Positions 8,689 through 20,451 of a DNA stretch of 64,000 nucleotides are shown one piece after another. Source of the DNA: Thermoanaerobaculales bacterium (GTDB taxonomy: Bacteria > Acidobacteriota > Thermoanaerobaculia > Thermoanaerobaculales > Sulfomarinibacteraceae); NCBI GenBank assembly GCA_025456145.1, contig JALOLD010000003.1, forward strand, positions 18,209-82,208. The letters are read 5' to 3'. The position numbers and the translations under genes are program-made. Position 1 is the first letter of the stretch. Each line of letters begins with the position of its first letter. A model generated the notes under the pieces. That model made no database searches and had not been told where the DNA came from. It was given only the letters and a program-made list of their open reading frames with translations.

Positions 8689-8748
8689 ACCCTCACTCGC
8701 TGGCCTGTCGGGTCGGAGGTGAGGTGCGAGGCTGGTGCCGGAGGAGGG
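8689..8748. repeat. 60-bp direct repeat, copy 2 (overlaps the genuine 3' end of tRNA-Leu, 8733-8748)
   Basis: It is a perfect 60/60 match to 8491-8550, with a 198-bp period. The 138 bp between the copies form an imperfect long hairpin. Confidence 0.9.
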
Positions 8749-8818
8749 ATTCGAACCCTCACTGGGTTGCCCCAGGCGGATTTTGAGTCCGCTGCGTCTG
8801 CCATTCCGCCACTCCGGC
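8733..8818 (-). tRNA. tRNA-Leu (anticodon CAA), class II with a long variable arm, CCA encoded
   Basis: Reverse complement: GCCGGAGTGGCGGAATGGCAGACGCAGCGGACTCAAAATCCGCCTGGGGCAACCCAGTGAGGGTTCGAATCCCTCCTCCGGCACCA. The acceptor stem is 7 bp (GCCGGAG/CTCCGGC). The anticodon stem is GCGGA/TCCGC with loop CTCAAAA. The variable arm is CTGGG-GCAA-CCCAG. The T arm is GAGGG-TTCGAAT-CCCTC. Confidence 0.95.
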
Positions 8819-11900: not shown

Positions 11901-14567
11901 TCAGCTTCTCGGCTCGAGGGCCCCTTCTCCGAGCCAGTGCTCGAACAGCCGGAAGACGCGGTAGCCGTCGACCTTGGCGGTCCTCTCGATCTCGAGCGGC
12001 GAGGTCCCGCGGGTCGCCTGGACCCAGATCCCGTTGACGAAGGCCGCATCGCCCTCGTCGGGCAGACTGGTCGGCTGACTGCCGGTGGCGCCGAAACGGG
12101 CATCGTCCGCAACCACCGCCGCGGCGCGGTTGAACTCGTCGTACCTTCGCATGCCTTCCATGAGCAGGGACATCACCGAGTTGCCGCCGGCGGGAGAGCC
12201 GTCCGGCCGCCGGTCGAGCTGCCTGGTGACGAAGATGAACCGGCCGATCACCGGCCGCTCGAGGAGCTGGTAGACCGCGGTTTCGCCCGCGAGATCGCCA
12301 TAGGACGCGTCAACCATCAGACCGTCGCGCAACGCGATGTTGGCGACCGCGCTGCCGGTGTCGTCGAGCACGGTGAGCACGCCCTCGAGCCTCGAGTCGG
12401 CGAGGTTCTGCATGAGGTTGGGCAGACCGAACAGGGCGAGATCGCCGGACAGCGAGGTGAGGGTCTGCTCGTCGTCGGCGGAACGGTCGGTTGCGGGCCG
12501 GGCGCCGAGCTGGCTGAGACATTTCGCCGCGGCGTTGGCGAAGCGTTCGCCGGGGAAGTTGCGGACGATGCTGTCATAGACCTTGCGGACCTTCGGGGTG
12601 TCGGTTCCCGAGAGGCTCTCGAAGAGGTGTTGCAGGTTCTGGGCCTTCCTCGCCGACTTGACCGAGACGCCGAAGACCTTGACTGGGAGCTCGGCCTTGA
12701 TCGCGTCGATGATCCGGTTGACCGTGACCGGGTCGTCGCTCAGATCCGACGCGCCGAGCATCGCCAACCTGGCCAGGGTGGGGCCGAACTCCGAACGGCG
12801 GCTGAGGCCGTGGTTGACGATGCACTGCCGGGTTTCCTTCGAGTCGAACCTCATCATCGCCTTGAGCGCGGTGTCGAGGAGGGACTGGATCTCTTCGGGT
12901 TTGTGGGCCGCGTTCCCCTTCTGGAGAAGCACGTCCTCGAGGTCGCTCACTCTGGCCACCAGGGTCTTGGACGCCCTCGGGTGGTCGATCTGGCCGAGCC
13001 CGGTGAGGGCCTCGCGGATCAGCGGGAGCTCGCCTCCGGGCACCGAGGCCCGGATCAGGAGGTCGATCTCCTTCTCGATGTCGAGCTCGTCGCTGGGATC
13101 GATCGACCGCATGAGGTAGATCAGGTTGCGCTGGGCGTACCAGGGGTGGGCGACGTTGCCGGACAGCGAGTCGTCGAGGATCTTGATCGCCCGGCCGCGC
13201 GCCGCCTCGCCGTGGATCATGAGCAGCCTGAGGATCAGTCGGCGGCGATCACGCCGCTTCTCCTCGAAGAGGTCCTGGATCAGGTTGTCGATCTGGAGCC
13301 GGGGAAAGAAGTCGAGCACACGGCGAAGCAGCAGCCGCTTGTCGTCGTTTTCGGCGAAGCCGCGGAGCTGGGCCTCGTCGATCCGGCCGCCCGCCTGCTC
13401 GATGAAGGTGCGGGCGAAGGAGGGGTCGACCTCCTTTTGAGCGACCATCCTCTGGGCGAGGTCGATGACCGTCACCGCCCGGCCGAGCGAGCCGCCGTTG
13501 AACTCGTCGATCGCGGTCGAGATGAGCTCCTTGAACCGGTCGTTGAGCTCGGCCGGGCCCTTGGCGAGCTCGACCACCTTGCGCATGGTCTGGGCGGCGC
13601 CGCTGAGACCCGCCCCGCCCGTGTCCCCCGGGGCCGGCGCCTGCGCCGGCGCCCAGTCGGGCAGGGCGTTGCTCAGCACCCGGAAGACCCCGCTCCCGGT
13701 CGAGCCGACGCCGTACTGGTTGAGGTAGCGCAGCTGGTTGTCGAGGTCGGCGGTCGAGCGCGCCGAGGTCGCGACCTCGTCGATGATCCGCGACAGGAGC
13801 GCCCCCTGGGCCGCCGCGAGGGTGGCGTTGAGCTGCGACGGGGTCGACTGGGCGACGGGCGGGGCGGCCGCCACCCGCTCCCAGCGGTCGAGCAGCATGT
13901 TGAGGCGGTTGAGGTGGGCGGCGGTCTGCTCCTGCTCGGCCATCGCGGCGCTCTGGCCGGCTGCCTGGGTGGGAGGTGGGGTGGACCGCTCCGGGGCATC
14001 GGGGGGTCGTTCGAGCCGTTGGGCCGGGGCCGGGGGCGCGGTCGCGGATCTGCCGCTGCCGCCACCCCCGGCGGCCGGTGGGTAGGCGCCGCTCGCCGCG
14101 TGGTCGCCACCTCCCGTCGCTCCGCCCGGATCACCGCCGCGCATCGCCGGAACCCGGTCGACCGAGATCCGGGCCGCCACCGCCGGGTTGTCGGAGAGGA
14201 CGACGTCGAGATGGGCGAGGCTGACCGCGAGGTTGGACCGGTCGCCCTCGGGGCAGATGCTCAGCAGCATCGGACGGAGCCGGTCGAGGAAGACCTTGAG
14301 ATCCTCGCGCGGGATGAGCTCGAGCTCGCCGAGGTGGTGCACCTTACGCGCCGCGTGGAGGAGATAGTCGGCGATGGTCGAGGGCGCGGCGCCCTGGAGC
14401 TGGATCCCGACCCAACCGTGAATCGACCGGGCCATGATTTCGGGAGGCGAGTTGAGGAGGACCTCGGCCGAGCCTGCGAAGATCATCGGGGCGATCTCGT
14501 CCGACAAATACCTCGCGAGCTCGTTCTGCGCCTCGCCGATCAGTTGATCGTCGACCTCGATACCCAA
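11901..14567 (-). CDS. Large hypothetical protein with a C-terminal DUF4388/PATAN-type domain and helical-repeat body
   Basis: The 888-codon ORF starts at TTG 14567, preceded by GGGAGG. The C-terminal region SGDLALFGLPNLMQNLADSRLEGVLTVLDD ... GETAVYQLLERP fits the DUF4388 pattern. A Gly/Pro/Ala-rich disordered insert lies near the N-terminus. Confidence 0.7.
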   Translation of the reverse strand: MGIEVDDQLIGEAQNELARYLSDEIAPMIFAGSAEVLLNSPPEIMARSIHGWVGIQLQGAAPSTIADYLLHAARKVHHLGELELIPREDLKVFLDRLRPMLLSICPEGDRSNLAVSLAHLDVVLSDNPAVAARISVDRVPAMRGGDPGGATGGGDHAASGAYPPAAGGGGSGRSATAPPAPAQRLERPPDAPERSTPPPTQAAGQSAAMAEQEQTAAHLNRLNMLLDRWERVAAAPPVAQSTPSQLNATLAAAQGALLSRIIDEVATSARSTADLDNQLRYLNQYGVGSTGSGVFRVLSNALPDWAPAQAPAPGDTGGAGLSGAAQTMRKVVELAKGPAELNDRFKELISTAIDEFNGGSLGRAVTVIDLAQRMVAQKEVDPSFARTFIEQAGGRIDEAQLRGFAENDDKRLLLRRVLDFFPRLQIDNLIQDLFEEKRRDRRRLILRLLMIHGEAARGRAIKILDDSLSGNVAHPWYAQRNLIYLMRSIDPSDELDIEKEIDLLIRASVPGGELPLIREALTGLGQIDHPRASKTLVARVSDLEDVLLQKGNAAHKPEEIQSLLDTALKAMMRFDSKETRQCIVNHGLSRRSEFGPTLARLAMLGASDLSDDPVTVNRIIDAIKAELPVKVFGVSVKSARKAQNLQHLFESLSGTDTPKVRKVYDSIVRNFPGERFANAAAKCLSQLGARPATDRSADDEQTLTSLSGDLALFGLPNLMQNLADSRLEGVLTVLDDTGSAVANIALRDGLMVDASYGDLAGETAVYQLLERPVIGRFIFVTRQLDRRPDGSPAGGNSVMSLLMEGMRRYDEFNRAAAVVADDARFGATGSQPTSLPDEGDAAFVNGIWVQATRGTSPLEIERTAKVDGYRVFRLFEHWLGEGALEPRS

Positions 14568-14707: not shown

Positions 14708-15421
14708 TCAATCCTCTTCGGGCACGGGTGGCGGCTGGAGGTCGGTCGGGCAGAGGCGGTCGCGCCGCTCGGTGAGGTCGGCGACCACCGCCGCCGAGAA
14801 GCCGAGCTCTGGCCGTGCCTCCACGACCTCGCGCTTGTACCGGGCGATGTCGATCATCTCGAAGCGGCAGAGGATCGGCTGGAAGAGGCGCGGCATGAGC
14901 TCTCCCGGGGACTGGATGTGGTGCAACCCACCCGAGTACACGGTGAGCATCCTGCCGTCGGGCAACGCCTCCAAGATGTCGGCGATACCCGTCCGGACGG
15001 TCATCGGACGACCCGAGGAGTCGAGCCCGGTGCGACGCTTCATCCGACCCTCGGGGAGGATCACGACGAGCGCACGGTCGTCGATGCTGGTGAGCACCTT
15101 CTCCCAGGTCGCATCGCGGTGCCGGGTGACGGTGACCGCGTGGCGGACTAGGAACCTGAAGAACATCCCGATCGGCCGCCGCATCGTCTTCTCCGCCACC
15201 GGCAGCACCCCGTGCCGGGCGAAGCGCCAGAGCAGCGCGGTCGAGGCATAGCCCGCGATCAACGGCTCATACAGGCTGGTGTGGTTGAGGATCGCCACCA
15301 CCCGGGTACGGTCGGCCATCTCGGCCGGCTTGGTCGGTATCCAGTCCTCGTGGAGCCTGAAGAAGAGCCGGGTCGCGGCCCTCACGCTCAGCAGCAGCAG
15401 GAAGACGAGGATCGATCGCAT
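14708..15421 (-). CDS. PlsC/LPLAT-family acyltransferase (lysophospholipid acyltransferase-like)
   Basis: AILNHTSLYEP is an HX4D/E-type block, ILPEGRMKR is an FPEG-type block, and there is an N-terminal TM helix. Confidence 0.75.
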   Translation of the reverse strand: MRSILVFLLLLSVRAATRLFFRLHEDWIPTKPAEMADRTRVVAILNHTSLYEPLIAGYASTALLWRFARHGVLPVAEKTMRRPIGMFFRFLVRHAVTVTRHRDATWEKVLTSIDDRALVVILPEGRMKRRTGLDSSGRPMTVRTGIADILEALPDGRMLTVYSGGLHHIQSPGELMPRLFQPILCRFEMIDIARYKREVVEARPELGFSAAVVADLTERRDRLCPTDLQPPPVPEED

Positions 15422-15538
15422 GGCTCATCGCCGGCGACCGCGCGGCCGCGGGCGTTGCCGGCAACCCTAGCCGATCCCGGCGCCCCCGGCACGTCGCAGT
15501 GCGGCATCGGGGGCCGGTCGAACGGGGGGCGTTCGCCC

Positions 15539-17992
15539 TCACCAGTCGACGACCAGCCCGGCGTAGGCGCTCCTGGTCGCGGCCGGAATCCACACCGGCT
15601 GCGAGCCGTCGAAGTAGCCGAAGGTCGTGAACAGCTCGTCGGTGAGGTTGTTGACCCTGAGCTGGATGCGCAGGCTCCTCGCCCTGACGACCTCGGCCGT
15701 CGACCGCCCGAGATCGACCTCGACCGCGAGGTCGACCGCCGTGAAGGCGTCGTTGACCCGGTGGATGTAAGACGGGTCGTCGCGGACCTCGGGGAAGTCG
15801 CGCATGTCCTCGGTGTTGTCGAGGTAGAAGTCGTCGACGTGGCGCAGGGTGAGGGATCCCAGGACCGGGCCGACGGAGCCATGGGCCTCGACGGAGACCA
15901 GCCACTCCGGGCTCACCGGCAGCGAGTTTCCCGACTGGTCGACGGCGTTGCCATCGAAGTCGTGCTCGACGAACTCGACGAAGCGGCTGCGCGCCCAGGC
16001 GAGGTCGAGGCGGCCGCCGAAGCGGGGCGTCGGGTTCCACTCGACCTCGAGCTCGGCGCCCCGGTGCTCGGTGACCGCTCCGTTGGCGGTCACCGGGTCG
16101 CCGTTGTTGTCGAGCCCGCCCGCCCAGACGATGGCGTTGTCGAAGTCGAGGTAGTAGAGGTTTGCGGCGACTCGGCCGGTCGACCAGCCGTAGCTGAGGC
16201 CGAGCTCGTAGTCGGTGAGCTCCTCGGGCTCGAGGTCTAGGGGCGGCGGCGACCAGATGCTCTGGGGATCATAGATGTCGCGGAAGGCGGGCTCGCGGCC
16301 GCCGCGCGAGACATTGGCGAACAGGCTGAGCCGCTCGGTCGGGCGATAGGTGACGCCGAGGCGGGGCAGGAGGTACGAGAAGCTCTCCTCGACCTCGACT
16401 CCGGCGACCCGGTCGTCGTGCATCTCGTAGCGGTGGTGGGTCCAGGTCAGGCCGGCCATGATGTGCCAGCGGTCTGCCACCGACCAGCTCTCCTGGAGAA
16501 AGGGCTGGACGGTCTGCTTGTCGAGACGGTAGTCGTAGTAGCGGTGGTCGGGAGGCAGGTCGGGCGGGTACAGCCGGGCCCACTGGACCTCGCCCCAGTG
16601 ACGGCCGCTGTGGAGTCGGAGCGCGAGCCCCGCCTGGAGGGCGCCGCGGCCGTCGGCGTGCCGCCACTCGAGGTTGGGGATCCAGCCGGCGTCCCACTCC
16701 TCGACCTCGCGCCGGGTCACCAGGTCGGTCGTGTCGACGACCGTGCCGTCGGGCAGCTCGACCGGGTTGAGACCGTACTCGGGCATCCAGGCGTCCTCGG
16801 CGAGCTGCTGGAAGTAGCCGTCGCCCTCGAAGAGGAACAGCGTGTTGCGAAGCGCGAGATCGGCACCGACCTGCCAGTCGTGGACGAGCTGGTAGTGGGG
16901 TTGGAAGAAGCTGTCGATCTCGCCGGGGTAGCTCAGGGGGTTGGCTCGCCGGTCGACCCGCCGGTCGCCCGTGATCTCCCCCTCGAGGTTGGCCCTGGGC
17001 ACTCCGACATAGGCGAGGTGGGTCTCCTCCGGCCCGCCGAACAGGTTGACCTGGAGGGTGGTGCGCTCTCCGTAGCGGACCACCGAGAGCGAGTAGCTCC
17101 ACATCTCGGCCCAGCTCTGGTCGCGGTAGCCGTCCGACGAGACCCGCGAGTACCGCGCCGTCGCCGCCCAGCGGTCGTCGAACAGCCCGCTGTCGTACTC
17201 GAGGGTGAGTCGGCCGGTGCCGAACGACCCGCCGAGGGCGGCGAGACGGAGCCGCGGCTCGGCCAGGGGTCGGCGGCTCTCGATGTTGACCGAGCCGCCG
17301 ATCGCGCTGCCGCCGTAGAGACTGGTTCCGACCCCGCGTTGGACCTGGATCGTCCCGGTCGTCGAGAGCAGGTCGGCGTGGTCGATGAAGAACACGCTGT
17401 GCGAGTGGGCGTCGTTGAGCGGCACGCCGTTGAGGCTCACCGCGGTGCGTCGCATGTCGAAGCCGCGTAGGTAGAAGTACGAGTAGCCGATGCCGTTGCC
17501 GCTGTCGTTGGTGGCCAGGAAGCCCGGGGTCTGCTCGAGGAAGATCGGGATGTCCTGGGCCCAGTAGCCCCGCTCGATCTCGGGCCGGCCGACCTCGGTC
17601 ACGGTGACCGGCGTCTCGCCGATGGTGGCGCCCAGGCCGGTGACCGAGACCTCGCCACGGAACACGACCGGGACGGCCTCGAGGTTCAACGGGGGTGTGT
17701 GGGGGAGGTCGGTGACGACGAGATTGAGGACCTCGTACCCGGTGGCCGTCACGACCAGGCGGGCGGAGGGTGGAGGCGGGTCGGGGAGCGGGATGGTGAA
17801 GCCGCCGTCGGCGCCGGTCGTTGCGGTGATCGAGCTTTCCCCCAGGGTGACCTCGACCGAGGCGCCGGCGATCGCGTCGCCGGTGCGCCGGTCGCTCAGC
17901 CGTCCCCTCAGCTCGGCGCCGGAAGCGCTTGCCGCGCCGACGAGCACGGCGACGGCGGCGATGGATGCAATGGTCATCGAAGCTGGCTTCAT
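15539..17992 (-). CDS. TonB-dependent outer-membrane receptor with N-terminal carboxypeptidase-regulatory-like domain; likely thiamine-related uptake given the upstream riboswitch
   Basis: From ORF 15539..18259, with the start moved to ATG 17990-17992, which is preceded by GGAAGGGAGAGG. The signal peptide is MKPASMTIASIAAVAVLVGAASASG. The CarbopepD_reg-like region is GRLSDRRTGDAIAGASVEV. Plug and barrel blocks include YLRGFDMRRTAVSLNGVPLND and VGTSLYGGSAIGGSVNI. The protein ends in a terminal aromatic, ...GLVVDW. Confidence 0.9.
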   Translation of the reverse strand: MKPASMTIASIAAVAVLVGAASASGAELRGRLSDRRTGDAIAGASVEVTLGESSITATTGADGGFTIPLPDPPPPSARLVVTATGYEVLNLVVTDLPHTPPLNLEAVPVVFRGEVSVTGLGATIGETPVTVTEVGRPEIERGYWAQDIPIFLEQTPGFLATNDSGNGIGYSYFYLRGFDMRRTAVSLNGVPLNDAHSHSVFFIDHADLLSTTGTIQVQRGVGTSLYGGSAIGGSVNIESRRPLAEPRLRLAALGGSFGTGRLTLEYDSGLFDDRWAATARYSRVSSDGYRDQSWAEMWSYSLSVVRYGERTTLQVNLFGGPEETHLAYVGVPRANLEGEITGDRRVDRRANPLSYPGEIDSFFQPHYQLVHDWQVGADLALRNTLFLFEGDGYFQQLAEDAWMPEYGLNPVELPDGTVVDTTDLVTRREVEEWDAGWIPNLEWRHADGRGALQAGLALRLHSGRHWGEVQWARLYPPDLPPDHRYYDYRLDKQTVQPFLQESWSVADRWHIMAGLTWTHHRYEMHDDRVAGVEVEESFSYLLPRLGVTYRPTERLSLFANVSRGGREPAFRDIYDPQSIWSPPPLDLEPEELTDYELGLSYGWSTGRVAANLYYLDFDNAIVWAGGLDNNGDPVTANGAVTEHRGAELEVEWNPTPRFGGRLDLAWARSRFVEFVEHDFDGNAVDQSGNSLPVSPEWLVSVEAHGSVGPVLGSLTLRHVDDFYLDNTEDMRDFPEVRDDPSYIHRVNDAFTAVDLAVEVDLGRSTAEVVRARSLRIQLRVNNLTDELFTTFGYFDGSQPVWIPAATRSAYAGLVVDW

Positions 17993-18044
17993 GACGCCTC
18001 TCCCTTCCGACCGGGCGGACACGGTCGGAGGAACGACGCCACGG

Positions 18045-18135
18045 ACATCGACTCCAGTTCCCTCCGCCGGCATGACCCGGATCAGGTTCAAGGGGTGTGA
18101 TCTCAGCCCGGACGGGCACCCCCATGGATTGACAG
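18045..18135 (-). promoter_or_regulatory. TPP (THI-box) riboswitch aptamer
   Basis: The minus strand reads CCAUGGGGGUGCCCGUCCGGGCUGAGAUCACACCCCUUGAACCUGAUCCGGGUCAUGCCGGCGGAGGGAACUGGA. This matches the TPP aptamer consensus GGGGUGC..GCUGAGA..ACCC..UGAACCUGAUC.GG.U.AU.CC.GCG.AGGGA almost position for position (compare the E. coli thiM leader). It lies 60-140 nt upstream of the receptor start codon. Confidence 0.85.
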
Positions 18136-18157
18136 AAGCTGTGAAAGAGCTGCGACC

Positions 18158-18186
18158 ACTATCGTCGTCGGACGTTGGTCTGTCAA
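18158..18186 (-). promoter_or_regulatory. Candidate promoter of the riboswitch-receptor transcript
   Basis: The minus strand reads TTGACA (18181-18186, perfect -35), a 17-nt spacer, then GATAGT (18158-18163). The predicted TSS is about 20 nt upstream of the aptamer. Confidence 0.45.
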
Positions 18187-18312
18187 GGCAGCCGCCCGGC
18201 GGGCCGCGGTAGGGGAGGGGATTCCGGCGACCCGACGGTACGGACGCCCGTCGGCGCAAGCCATCGCTGCCGTCCCTAGAAGGGGCCGGTTCTCCGTTAT
18301 CCTAGAAAGAGG

Positions 18313-20451
18313 ATGCGGGCCAATACGCTTGTGGACCGTTGGGTTGCCGAAGCCCTGGCGCGCCCGATCGAGATCCTCAGGGGATACCGGGCGGTGCGGC
18401 TGCGGCCCGACGCGGTGGCCGGGCTCACCGTGGCGGTGGTCGCGATCCCGCAGTCGATCGCCTACGCCTCGATCGCCGGGCTGCCGCCTTCGTACGGCCT
18501 GTACGCGGCCGCGGTGGCGGTGATCGTCGGCTCGCTGTGGGGCTCGTCGCGCTATCTGAGCACCGGACCGACCAACGCGATCTCGATCCTCGCGCTGTCG
18601 ATCCTCGCCCCGCTCGCGACGATCGGCTCGGCCGAGTACCTCATGGCGGCCTCGCTGATGGCGGTGATGGTCGGCGTGTTCTGCGTGGTCTTCGGCTTCG
18701 GGGGCCTCGGCGTGCTGATCAACTTCGCCTCGCGGGCGGTGCTGCTCGGCTTCACCGCCGGCGCCGGGGTGCTCATCGCCGGCGGTCAGCTCAAGAACCT
18801 GCTGCGCCTCGAGATCCCTCCGAGCCCGCACCTCTGGCACACGCTGAGCGAGGTCGTCGGCCGGATCGGGGAGAGCCACCCGCCGAGCCTGCTGCTCGGT
18901 CTCGGCACGATGACGGCGATGGTCGCCATCGGCCGCTGGCGGCCGCGGCTACCGGCGGCGCTGATCGCGCTATCCGGCGCTGGGCTGCTCGTGGCGGCGG
19001 TCGGCGTCGGCCGGCTCGGCGTCGCCGTGGTCGGCGAGATCCCCCGCGAGCTGCCCCAGCTCAGCTCGTTCTCGCTCGGCTGGATGTGGGAGAACGACCT
19101 GATCGGCGCCCTGGTCACCGGGTCGCTGGCGGTGGCGGCGATGGGTCTGGTGGAGGCGGTGTCGATCGCCCGCGAGATCTCCCGGCAGAGCGGCGAGCGG
19201 CTCGACGTCAACCAGGAGCTGGTCGGGCAGGGAATGGCCAACATCGCCGCCGGTCTGTTCTCGGGCTATGCCTGCTCGGGCTCGTTCACCCGTTCGGCGA
19301 TCAACTTCCAGTCGGGCGCTCGGAGCCAGATCTCCGGCGTCTTCTGCGGCGTCTTCGTGATCATCGGCGTGCTCGCCTTCGGGCCCGCCGCCGCCTTCCT
19401 GCCGAGGGCCGCGCTGGCCGGGATGATCATGGTGATCGCCTATCGGATGGTCGACTGGCACGGCGTCCGGCGGGTCGTCGCGACATCGCGCAGCGAGACC
19501 GGGATCATGGTCGCGACCTTCGGCGCGACCCTCGTCTTCCCCCTCGAGTTCGCGGTCCTCGCCGGCGTCATCCTGTCGCTCGGCATCTACATCTACAAGT
19601 CGAGCCTGCCGACCGTCCACACCGTCGTCCCGGACCCGACCTTCCGGCACTTCGTCGAGCGCGACGACGCCCCGTGCTGCCCCCAGCTCGGGGTCATCAA
19701 CATCCGGGGCGCCCTCTTCTTCGGGGCGGCCAGCCACGTCGAGGACGAGCTGCTCGCCAACTACGAGGCCAACCCGGGTCAGGGGCACCTGCTCCTGCGG
19801 ATGCACGGGGTCCACCAGTGCGACCTGTCGGGGATCGACGTCCTCGAGGGCCTGGTCAAGCTGTACCGCGACGGGGGCGGCGACGTGTTCCTCGTCCAGG
19901 TCCGCCCCGAGGTCCGGTGGGTGATGCGCGCCTCGGGCTTCGAGGACCTGCTCGGCGACGCGAACTTCCTGCTCCAGGAGGACGCCATCGAGTGGCTGTT
20001 CGAGCACCGAATCGACCCGGCGGTGTGCGTCTACGAGTGCGAGCACCGGGTCTTCGCCGAGTGCCAGCCCCTCGAGAAGCACCCCTACGACATCCGGCTG
20101 CCGGCCTTCCCGGCCCGCTTCCGCTACCCCGAGCGACAGCTCTCCGTGCCCGAGTTCGAGGATGCGCTCAAGCTCAACCGTCGCCGCGATGGGCTCGTCG
20201 TCGACGTCCGGGAGGAGAGGGAGTACCTGACCGGGCACATCCCGGGGGCCGAGCTGATGCCGTTGCGCCACGTCATCGAGGACGCCGAGCGGCTGCCCCG
20301 GGACCGGCCGATCCTGCTCGTCTGCCGCTCCGGCCGGCGCTCGACCCGGGCGATGCACTGGCTGATCGGTCTCGGCTTCTCGGAGGTCGCCAACCTCAAG
20401 GGCGGGCTGCTGAGCTGGAAGGCGATGGGCCGGCCGGTCGAGATCGAGTGA
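18313..20451 (+). CDS. SulP-family anion transporter with STAS domain fused to a C-terminal rhodanese domain
   Basis: SulP signature: GLTVAVVAIPQSIAYASIAGLPPSYGLYAA. STAS-like region: LGVINIRGALFFGAASHVEDEL. C-terminal rhodanese: VVDVREEREYLTGHIPGAELMP ... LLVCRSGRRSTRAMHWL, with the active-site loop CRSGRRS. Confidence 0.88.
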   Translation: MRANTLVDRWVAEALARPIEILRGYRAVRLRPDAVAGLTVAVVAIPQSIAYASIAGLPPSYGLYAAAVAVIVGSLWGSSRYLSTGPTNAISILALSILAPLATIGSAEYLMAASLMAVMVGVFCVVFGFGGLGVLINFASRAVLLGFTAGAGVLIAGGQLKNLLRLEIPPSPHLWHTLSEVVGRIGESHPPSLLLGLGTMTAMVAIGRWRPRLPAALIALSGAGLLVAAVGVGRLGVAVVGEIPRELPQLSSFSLGWMWENDLIGALVTGSLAVAAMGLVEAVSIAREISRQSGERLDVNQELVGQGMANIAAGLFSGYACSGSFTRSAINFQSGARSQISGVFCGVFVIIGVLAFGPAAAFLPRAALAGMIMVIAYRMVDWHGVRRVVATSRSETGIMVATFGATLVFPLEFAVLAGVILSLGIYIYKSSLPTVHTVVPDPTFRHFVERDDAPCCPQLGVINIRGALFFGAASHVEDELLANYEANPGQGHLLLRMHGVHQCDLSGIDVLEGLVKLYRDGGGDVFLVQVRPEVRWVMRASGFEDLLGDANFLLQEDAIEWLFEHRIDPAVCVYECEHRVFAECQPLEKHPYDIRLPAFPARFRYPERQLSVPEFEDALKLNRRRDGLVVDVREEREYLTGHIPGAELMPLRHVIEDAERLPRDRPILLVCRSGRRSTRAMHWLIGLGFSEVANLKGGLLSWKAMGRPVEIE

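Follow-up and report, generated by a model that had tools for sequence, protein, structure and literature searches.

What does an otherwise anonymous TonB-dependent receptor carry across the outer membrane, and what decides when it is made? This question is raised by a stretch of 64,000 nucleotides (nt) from a sediment-dwelling Thermoanaerobaculales bacterium (phylum Acidobacteriota, family Sulfomarinibacteraceae; GenBank assembly GCA_025456145.1, contig JALOLD010000003.1, positions 18,209 to 82,208), hereafter the window, in whose own numbering all positions are given. Its minus strand encodes an 817-aa receptor preceded by a leader, in which an earlier reading of the sequence (the original prediction) had seen an unannotated thiamine pyrophosphate (TPP) riboswitch that occludes the Shine-Dalgarno (SD) sequence of a thiamine-family importer. 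The analysis presented here leads to a narrower proposal, to which we assign a probability of about 0.7: a TPP riboswitch with its own promoter controls translation initiation of a TonB-dependent receptor that imports intact thiamine.

The identity of the aptamer was computed by scanning the whole window against all 4227 Rfam families at curated thresholds. Two matches were returned, a tRNA (8736-8818) and the TPP riboswitch family RF00059 (18133..18042, minus strand), the latter with 71.0 bits against a gathering score of 54.3, an E value of 5.6e-12, and coverage of model positions 1-105 of 105. In the Infernal alignment, the blocks CUGAGA, ACCCC, UUGAACCUGAUCC, and GGCGGAGGGAA are in register with RF00059, and the CUGAGA joint, the ACCC closing P2, GAACCUGAUC, and GCGGAGGGA match its consensus structure, with a posterior line consisting mostly of asterisks. 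The P3a arm, optional in the model, is not present in this aptamer. P1 contains two non-standard pairs in the Infernal register; as an alternative, UCCA (18128-18125) and UGGA (18056-18053) form the clean 4-bp helix that had been described as a short P1. P2 (5 bp), P3 (4 bp), and P5 (4 bp) are canonical, P4 has 3 bp plus one G-G, and 20 standard pairs in P1-P5 were confirmed by script. A search of the whole window genome with RF00059 gave the same result as the window scan, this riboswitch being the sole TPP match. The listed sequence elements thus all lie where they had been placed on the minus strand, and the check that had been asked for, a significant RF00059 match with its conserved blocks in register, came out in favor of the assignment. 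On sequence grounds, the RNA ahead of the receptor is a TPP riboswitch aptamer, from which we infer that it binds TPP; as a riboswitch, it is an ordinary element of the translational type.

The open reading frame (ORF) from the ATG at 17992 to 15539 holds up as a TonB-dependent receptor, with a Plug domain followed by a beta-barrel domain as in TonB-dependent outer-membrane transporters (Table 1), and with a hydrophobic N-terminus, visible in the translation, that ends in ASASGAE. The riboswitch match ends 50 nt ahead of its ATG. No NCBIfam equivalog matched the receptor above cut-off, the best being a generic siderophore-receptor subfamily (132.8 vs 223.5 bits), and against solved structures, only weak plug-domain matches to CirA and FhuA were obtained (E about 1e-5), which offer no substrate clue. 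It is the riboswitch that gives this receptor a function.

Is the pairing of riboswitch and receptor a constant one? Gene linkage was computed in 61 Thermoanaerobaculales genomes from two families and 31 genera, the window genome included, which are kin and not independent of each other. A receptor orthologue was found at E <= 1e-30 in 56 of the 61 and RF00059 at E <= 0.001 likewise in 56 (50 of these over cut-off), with exactly one TPP match in 52. In 53 of the 56 receptor-bearing genomes, the riboswitch lies on the same contig and strand and ends -4 to 120 nt before the extrapolated start. Three genomes have the riboswitch without the receptor; according to ORF translations read by eye, it precedes thiM-thiE-thiL-like genes in G013, thiC-thiM-thiE-like genes in G042, and an AIR-synthase-like gene plus a TenA-like gene in G025. 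Beyond the order, an evenly drawn sample of 151 Acidobacteriota genomes yielded receptor homologues at 33-41% identity in 8 genomes from other Acidobacteriota families, and none at E <= 1e-60 in the 10 genomes that share the class but belong to other orders. At all 8 distant loci, RF00059 was matched above cut-off on the strand of the receptor and just upstream of it. Because the pair is kept in 53 of 56 related genomes and at 8 of 8 distant homologues, the riboswitch does not stand next to the receptor by chance. Two genomes from the family of the window genome, G011 and G031, are without close receptor orthologues, and without the orthologue of the transporter candidate described below; each has a TPP riboswitch before a different TonB-dependent receptor, 35-37% identical.

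The gene content of the window genome (4.56 Mb in 142 contigs, 91.75% complete) was then read by six-frame family searches. ThiC, ThiN, PnuC/PnuT (PF04973), ThiB, and ThiT gave no match in this genome, in which ThiE (20.5 bits), ThiD (24.7 bits), and ThiL (83.7 bits vs a cut-off of 184) gave sub-cut-off matches only, and ThiG only partial matches of 50-60 residues. Thiamine pyrophosphokinase (TPK) is clearly matched (80.4 bits, contig C94), and TPP-dependent enzymes are present, with two Transket_pyr matches. The cell is apparently a thiamine auxotroph, judging from these searches: it needs TPP, has no visible route for making thiamine or using its precursors, and could pyrophosphorylate imported thiamine. 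Since no ThiC, ThiD, ThiE, ThiG, or ThiN was found and TPK is present, the substrate of the receptor can be narrowed to intact thiamine. The order shows the same pattern, with ThiC in 2, strong ThiE in 6, and TPK in 53 of the 61 genomes, and a close receptor orthologue in 53 of the 55 genomes without ThiE versus 1 of the 6 with it; the receptor-less, ThiE-bearing genomes belong to at least four genera. The claim of a thiamine-family importer therefore gains from the gene content and from the conserved riboswitch-receptor link, and is probably to be restricted to intact thiamine. It had also been suggested to look elsewhere in the genome for thi genes and an inner-membrane transporter: TPK and one candidate transporter were found, but ThiC, ThiE, ThiG, ThiD, ThiN, ThiL, and the known thiamine transporters were not.

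The leader probably has a promoter of its own. A TTGACA-17-GATAGT site is present as claimed and is the only promoter-like site in 15000-19500, where shuffles average 0.2; the same -35/-10 layout recurs in related receptor leaders. Its distance to the aptamer had been given as about 20 nt, but the -10 box ends 24 nt before the Rfam match and 29 nt before P1. A single public RNA library (X1) contains part of the stretch, as assembled contigs only, and it shows neither the 5' end nor regulation. One of its contigs, of 187 nt, corresponds to 17902-18088 with no differences. It runs from the 3' half of the aptamer through the expression platform into the ORF, of which it covers the first 90 nt, and thus hints weakly at a joint transcript of leader and receptor gene. 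Most of the short RNA-library pieces at 18058-18097 have one to three differences and loose ends, and are probably aptamers of other organisms.

How the aptamer would act on translation was approached by computing alternative folds. Folded alone, the segment past P1 forms a hairpin of -33.9 kcal/mol that extends from 18043 to 17990 over both the SD and the AUG, CGUGGCGUC pairing with GGCGUCAUG and UUCCUCCGACCG with CGGUCGGA..GGAG. The stretch GUUCCUCCGACCG (18034-18022) has two alternative partners, the aptamer 3' strand and CGGUCGGAAGGGA. Constrained folds were made on the 153-nt leader: -58.3 kcal/mol with the aptamer locked and the hairpin formed, -63.1 kcal/mol for the unconstrained minimum free energy (MFE) structure of the same architecture, -52.9 kcal/mol for the best structure with SD to AUG single-stranded, and -37.1 kcal/mol with the aptamer locked and the SD open. 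The cost of opening the SD is thus 21.2 kcal/mol with the aptamer locked versus 10.2 with the aptamer free. The best SD-open structure joins 18071-18059 to 18033-18019 and 18080-18075 to 18016-18011, which repays about 11 kcal/mol of the SD-opening cost. This is the alternative pairing of the original prediction, in which the anti-SD strand has the choice between the aptamer 3' strand and the SD region, and the constrained folds bear it out.

A simple thermodynamic ON state is not predicted, since the SD is almost as accessible in the full unconstrained leader as in the downstream part alone (probability of being unpaired 0.28 vs 0.26 in the window genome; mean of 40 related leaders 0.26 vs 0.18). 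As this equilibrium comparison gave no ON state, the folds of growing transcripts were examined. Transcripts of up to 100 nt have the aptamer fold as their MFE, with an aptamer-like fold at 82-100 nt. From 108 to 138 nt, when the anti-SD strand is already out and the 3' strand of the hairpin still incomplete, the antisequestor is the MFE, ahead of the locked aptamer by 10.8-17.9 kcal/mol; from 144 nt, the MFE combines aptamer and hairpin. Because the OFF fold is predicted to be the most stable one even when no ligand is present, the switch would have to act during transcription. The folding model points to the layout of a kinetically controlled switch rather than an equilibrium one, in which TPP would have to bind while the leader is being transcribed.

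From these folds, the following sequence of events can be proposed. During transcription of the leader, the anti-SD strand would emerge before the SD. Without TPP, it would invade the weak P1/P4/P5 and pair with the aptamer 3' strand, so that SD and AUG would emerge single-stranded and the receptor would be made. With TPP bound, the aptamer would keep its own 3' strand, and the anti-SD strand would close a hairpin of about 25 bp over SD and AUG, blocking translation. The receptor would then move thiamine over the outer membrane, an SSF-family transporter (contig C84) probably over the inner membrane, and TPK would make TPP from it, riboswitch control being limited to the outer-membrane step.

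Support for the platform also comes from 45 related leaders, for 40 of which a start was chosen, 41-76 nt past the aptamer match and mostly behind a GGAG-type SD. Over these 40, the mean probability that the SD is unpaired is 0.18 versus 0.30 with the upstream part mononucleotide-shuffled, and 36 of 40 lie below their own shuffle mean. Tabulated by position from the AUG, pairing with an upstream strand is seen for the SD core (-11 to -6) in 28-36 of the 40 leaders and for the start codon bases in 25-29; these counts are per-sequence MFE predictions and not an independent covariation test. An MAFFT alignment of nine same-genus platforms placed the 5' strand of the window genome two columns out of register and so was not used for pair counting. 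The competing pairing recurs as well: in transcripts cut before the SD, 26 of 39 leaders have half or more of their anti-SD bases paired with the 3' 45 nt of the aptamer, the mean fraction over the leaders being 0.58 versus 0.25 when that part is shuffled. SD occlusion, as originally proposed, is therefore supported in silico, by the folds and by the SD-pairing strand conserved in related leaders, but the helix is longer than had been described, it also buries the AUG, and its OFF fold is predicted to be favored even without ligand.

Two variant layouts were encountered among the leaders. In four compact ones, from G012 (L025), G017 (L036), G023 (L019), and G024 (L030), the start codon precedes the end of the Rfam match by 9-11 nt, so that the aptamer's own invariant GGAGGGA would be the SD and a separate expression platform would not be needed; three of the four aptamers (not that of G017) have an extra hairpin after P2, with 40.7-46.5 bits, below the Rfam cut-off. 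In L110 and L111 (G078 and G139, other Acidobacteriota), where the operon is receptor-TPK-SSF, reading by eye shows a GC hairpin and a U run behind the aptamer, which hints that transcription termination replaces SD sequestration there.

Table 1. Features of the riboswitch-receptor locus, in window positions.
Feature	Position	Strand	Basis and remarks
Sigma-70-like promoter	18158..18186	(-)	TTGACA (18186-18181), 17-nt spacer, GATAGT (18163-18158)
Leader motif CTCTTTC (order-wide consensus nTCTTTG)	18143..18149	(-)	Starts 8 nt past the -10 box
TPP riboswitch aptamer	18042..18133	(-)	RF00059 match; P1-to-P1 core 18128-18053
Aptamer 3' strand GCCGGCGGAGGGA, anti-anti-SD (antisequestor partner)	18059..18071	(-)	Partner of 18033-18019, both in the best SD-open structure and in 108-138-nt transcripts (MFE)
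Sequestering hairpin, 5' strand	18022..18043	(-)	Anti-SD UUCCUCCGACCG (18033-18022) and anti-AUG CGUGGCGUC (18043-18035); downstream-only MFE and constrained folds
Sequestering hairpin, 3' strand	17990..18013	(-)	CGGUCGGA, SD GGAAGGGAGAGG (18008-17997), spacer, AUG (17992-17990)
TonB-dependent receptor, 817 aa	15539..17992	(-)	ATG at 17992; signal-peptide-like N-terminus; CarboxypepD_reg 28-89 (PF13620, 35.2 bits), Plug 126-233 (PF07715, 51 bits), beta-barrel 345-783 (PF00593, 144 bits)

As no known thiamine transporter had been found for the inner-membrane step, the genes following the receptor at the eight distant loci were examined. At seven of them, a membrane protein of 457-493 aa follows on the same strand, with a TPK gene in between at two; L118 and L119 are among the receptor-TPK-SSF loci. 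Pfam assigned the one distant-locus membrane protein that was scanned to SSF (PF00474) and the other ORF to TPK. All seven distant proteins match one and the same place in the window genome, C84:54048-55520 (minus strand), at 43-50% identity, the next best place reaching 27-30%. The gene there, outside the window, encodes an SSF protein (PF00474, 80.7 bits; locus L120, 2546-4021). An orthologue is found in 53 of the 61 relatives, its presence or absence agreeing with that of the receptor in 58, and receptor, SSF protein, and TPK occur together in 49. Going by gene context and co-occurrence, we put the chance that this SSF-family (ThiV-like) protein is the inner-membrane thiamine carrier of the window genome at slightly better than even. 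The neighborhood of the TPK gene (L006), read by eye, holds no thiamine-specific transporter candidate, only ABC-2-type permease-like and PhoH-like ORFs. The SSF gene is flanked by genes for a PilT/T2SSE-like ATPase and a TsaE-domain protein.

Other explanations must be weighed against a translational switch in front of a thiamine receptor. An accidental or decayed aptamer beside an unrelated receptor, for instance one for siderophores, would agree with the shortness of P1 and with the siderophore-receptor subfamily as best NCBIfam match, far below cut-off as that match is; set against an E value of 5.6e-12 versus all Rfam families and against the same aptamer-receptor pairing in 53 of 56 genomes and at all 8 distant homologues, it is barely credible. 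The receptor might instead import a thiamine precursor, such as hydroxymethylpyrimidine (HMP) or the thiazole moiety, or only phosphorylated thiamine, and it does match no characterised equivalog above cut-off. TPP riboswitches also control precursor transporters in other bacteria, as the 2002 comparative study by Rodionov reportedly describes. A precursor, however, would be useless to a cell in which ThiD, ThiE, ThiN, ThiC, and ThiG were not found, and TPK, an enzyme acting on thiamine, occurs in this genome and in 53 of the 61 relatives, and at two distant loci lies inside the riboswitch-receptor-SSF operon. Import of precursors, or of phosphorylated thiamine exclusively, is thus quite improbable, while phosphorylated thiamine may be an additional substrate.

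A stronger contender, still unlikely in our judgment, accepts the riboswitch as real and lets it act mainly on the transcript, by Rho-dependent termination or by faster mRNA decay after ribosome exclusion, an effect that would add to the translational explanation. The receptor start lies 50 nt past the aptamer and the leader is C-rich; the two distant leaders L110 and L111 have, as read by eye, hairpins followed by U runs; and in E. coli, according to the available part of one study, repression of translation by the TPP and lysC riboswitches is tied to Rho or RNase E (10.1101/867226). Yet no intrinsic-terminator-like site was found on the minus strand in 15000-19500, and the feature conserved in related leaders is the pairing of SD and AUG.

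Several observations weigh against a translational thiamine switch, or against parts of it. In three receptor-bearing genomes, no riboswitch was seen: the gene runs off the contig in G057 and the match begins at residue 78 in G055, while G026 has 248 nt of DNA ahead of the gene, in which no aptamer was matched even at E <= 0.01. In the nearest-neighbor model, the OFF fold lies 10.2 kcal/mol below the best ON fold without ligand, so that the ON state would hang on a kinetic trap. Taken alone, the SD pairing of the window genome cannot be distinguished from that of shuffles (0.26 vs 0.29; 16 of 40 shuffles are as low or lower), its whole-leader fold has a z of -0.76, and 9 of 39 related leaders have none of their anti-SD bases paired with the aptamer 3' part. 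The RNA evidence is a single assembled contig for which DNA carry-over is possible, and absences from a genome that is 91.75% complete are not proof. As for the SSF protein, no riboswitch lies near its gene in the window genome, G014 and G036 have the receptor without an SSF orthologue, and what ties it to thiamine is the operon context seen in other genomes, together with co-occurrence in related genomes that are not independent.

How does the proposed system compare with known ones? TonB-dependent receptors behind TPP riboswitches are said to have been predicted originally by the comparative work of Rodionov and colleagues in 2002. The E. coli thiM-type TPP riboswitch acts by translational SD sequestration, and the element described here resembles it in having an aptamer followed by an anti-SD strand that pairs with the SD or with the aptamer 3' part, and in lacking an intrinsic terminator. 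It differs from thiM in that the helix also covers the AUG, that the OFF fold is predicted to be the most stable one in the absence of ligand, and that the controlled gene encodes a transporter instead of a biosynthetic kinase. Among the closest known systems is OMthi (BT2390) of Bacteroides thetaiotaomicron, for which the text available of one study gives genetic evidence of a role in thiamine uptake (PMC5613172), and in both cases a stand-alone TonB-dependent receptor gene lies directly behind a TPP riboswitch. In the same bacterium, TPP riboswitches before transport operons act on translation and not on the mRNA level, as stated in the accessible part of another report (10.1101/867226). As far as the available text on OMthi goes, it works with the inner-membrane transporter PnuT and a thiamine pyrophosphokinase (Tnr3/TPK); here, TPK is present but unlinked, PnuT was not found in the window genome, and an SSF candidate takes its place. 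The absence of PnuT lowers the claim that this is the same system as in Bacteroides, not the claim that it works like it. The two systems further differ in phylum, Thermoanaerobaculales belonging to the Acidobacteriota; in that B. thetaiotaomicron also synthesises thiamine, whereas the window genome and 55 of the 61 genomes are without ThiE; and in that the riboswitch here is the only one of its genome.

In Variovorax, a TPP-riboswitch operon likewise includes a TonB-dependent receptor-like gene, a predicted thiamine transporter, located, as far as the part consulted of that paper shows, inside a biosynthetic operon of a prototroph (PMC10409787), whereas here it stands alone in an apparent auxotroph. 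The riboswitch-receptor-TPK-SSF operons of other Acidobacteriota (L118, L119) unite the same three functions, with SSF proteins 43-50% identical; in the window genome, unlike in these operons, the three genes are on three contigs and only the receptor has a riboswitch. The main text of the paper naming Ca. Sulfomarinibacter mentions no thiamin, vitamin, TonB, auxotroph, or riboswitch (PMC8528874). A phylum-wide preprint states, in the portion available, that thiamine biosynthesis is enriched in Holophagae and Aminicenantia versus four classes, Thermoanaerobaculia among them, and describes auxotrophies as generally lacking (PMC11245096); literature searches on the clade and thiamine found nothing more specific.

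Both the type of mechanism and the riboswitch-receptor pairing are already in print for Bacteroides. What is added here is modest: an order-wide picture with a single riboswitch, receptor, TPK, and no synthesis, a kinetic mechanism that covers SD plus AUG, and the SSF candidate. The riboswitch and the gene content together predict a dependence on external vitamin B1 for the organism and for most of its order, which is testable in a group resistant to cultivation and is a reason to add thiamine to enrichment media. A wider proposal, which we hold as tentative and rate a little below even odds, is that nearly the whole uncultured order Thermoanaerobaculales is thiamine-auxotrophic and lives on a riboswitch-gated TonB receptor, an uncharacterised SSF transporter, and TPK, the sole TPP sensor gating the outer-membrane step and the leader motif nTCTTTG being perhaps a TPP-independent input. 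The SSF-family protein is at the same time pointed to as an inner-membrane thiamine carrier in Acidobacteriota, a family for which no experimental characterisation was found in the literature.

Of the 45 related receptor leaders, 39 have the motif nTCTTTG between -10 box and aptamer; the four compact leaders and those of G029 and G054 do not have it, nor was it found in homologue leaders outside the order. In the whole window genome, the promoter-plus-motif arrangement occurs once, at this leader. The gap between the -10-like box and the motif is exactly 8 nt in 24 of 40 motif-bearing leaders and 16 nt in genus g27 (rows read by eye), and the motif was seen once ahead of a thiS-operon riboswitch (G032). 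The g27 gap, together with a -10-like box located further upstream in the G032 thiS leader, spoke against a strict transcription-start element. No consistent RNA partner was accepted: judged by base-pair probability in 39 leaders, the partner region of the motif is the SD/AUG in 13, the linker in 7, the leader in 7, the 3' part of the aptamer in 5, and its 5' part in 4, with the motif unpaired in 3, and a hand-built pairing with the invariant CGGAGGG is unsupported by the motif variants. The motif is a second conserved element of the leader, one that may add an input independent of TPP.

The genes around the receptor complete the description of the locus. A membrane-anchored, PlsC-like acyltransferase of 237 aa (14708-15421, minus strand; PF01553, 27 bits) begins 117 nt past the receptor stop and carries the motif NHTSLYE, that is, HX4E instead of HX4D. 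The gap between the receptor and acyltransferase genes showed no terminator-like site, and 14 of 29 related loci, which come from several genera, have an acyltransferase homologue directly behind the receptor. Next on the same strand, an 888-aa ORF (11901-14567) has a C-terminal DUF4388 as its only match; its N-terminal part is conserved after an acyltransferase-like gene in 6 of the 29 related loci. On the other side, the divergent neighbor (18313-20451, plus strand) encodes a SulP-family permease fused to a STAS domain and a C-terminal rhodanese domain, and shares with the riboswitch leader a common intergenic region of 320 nt.

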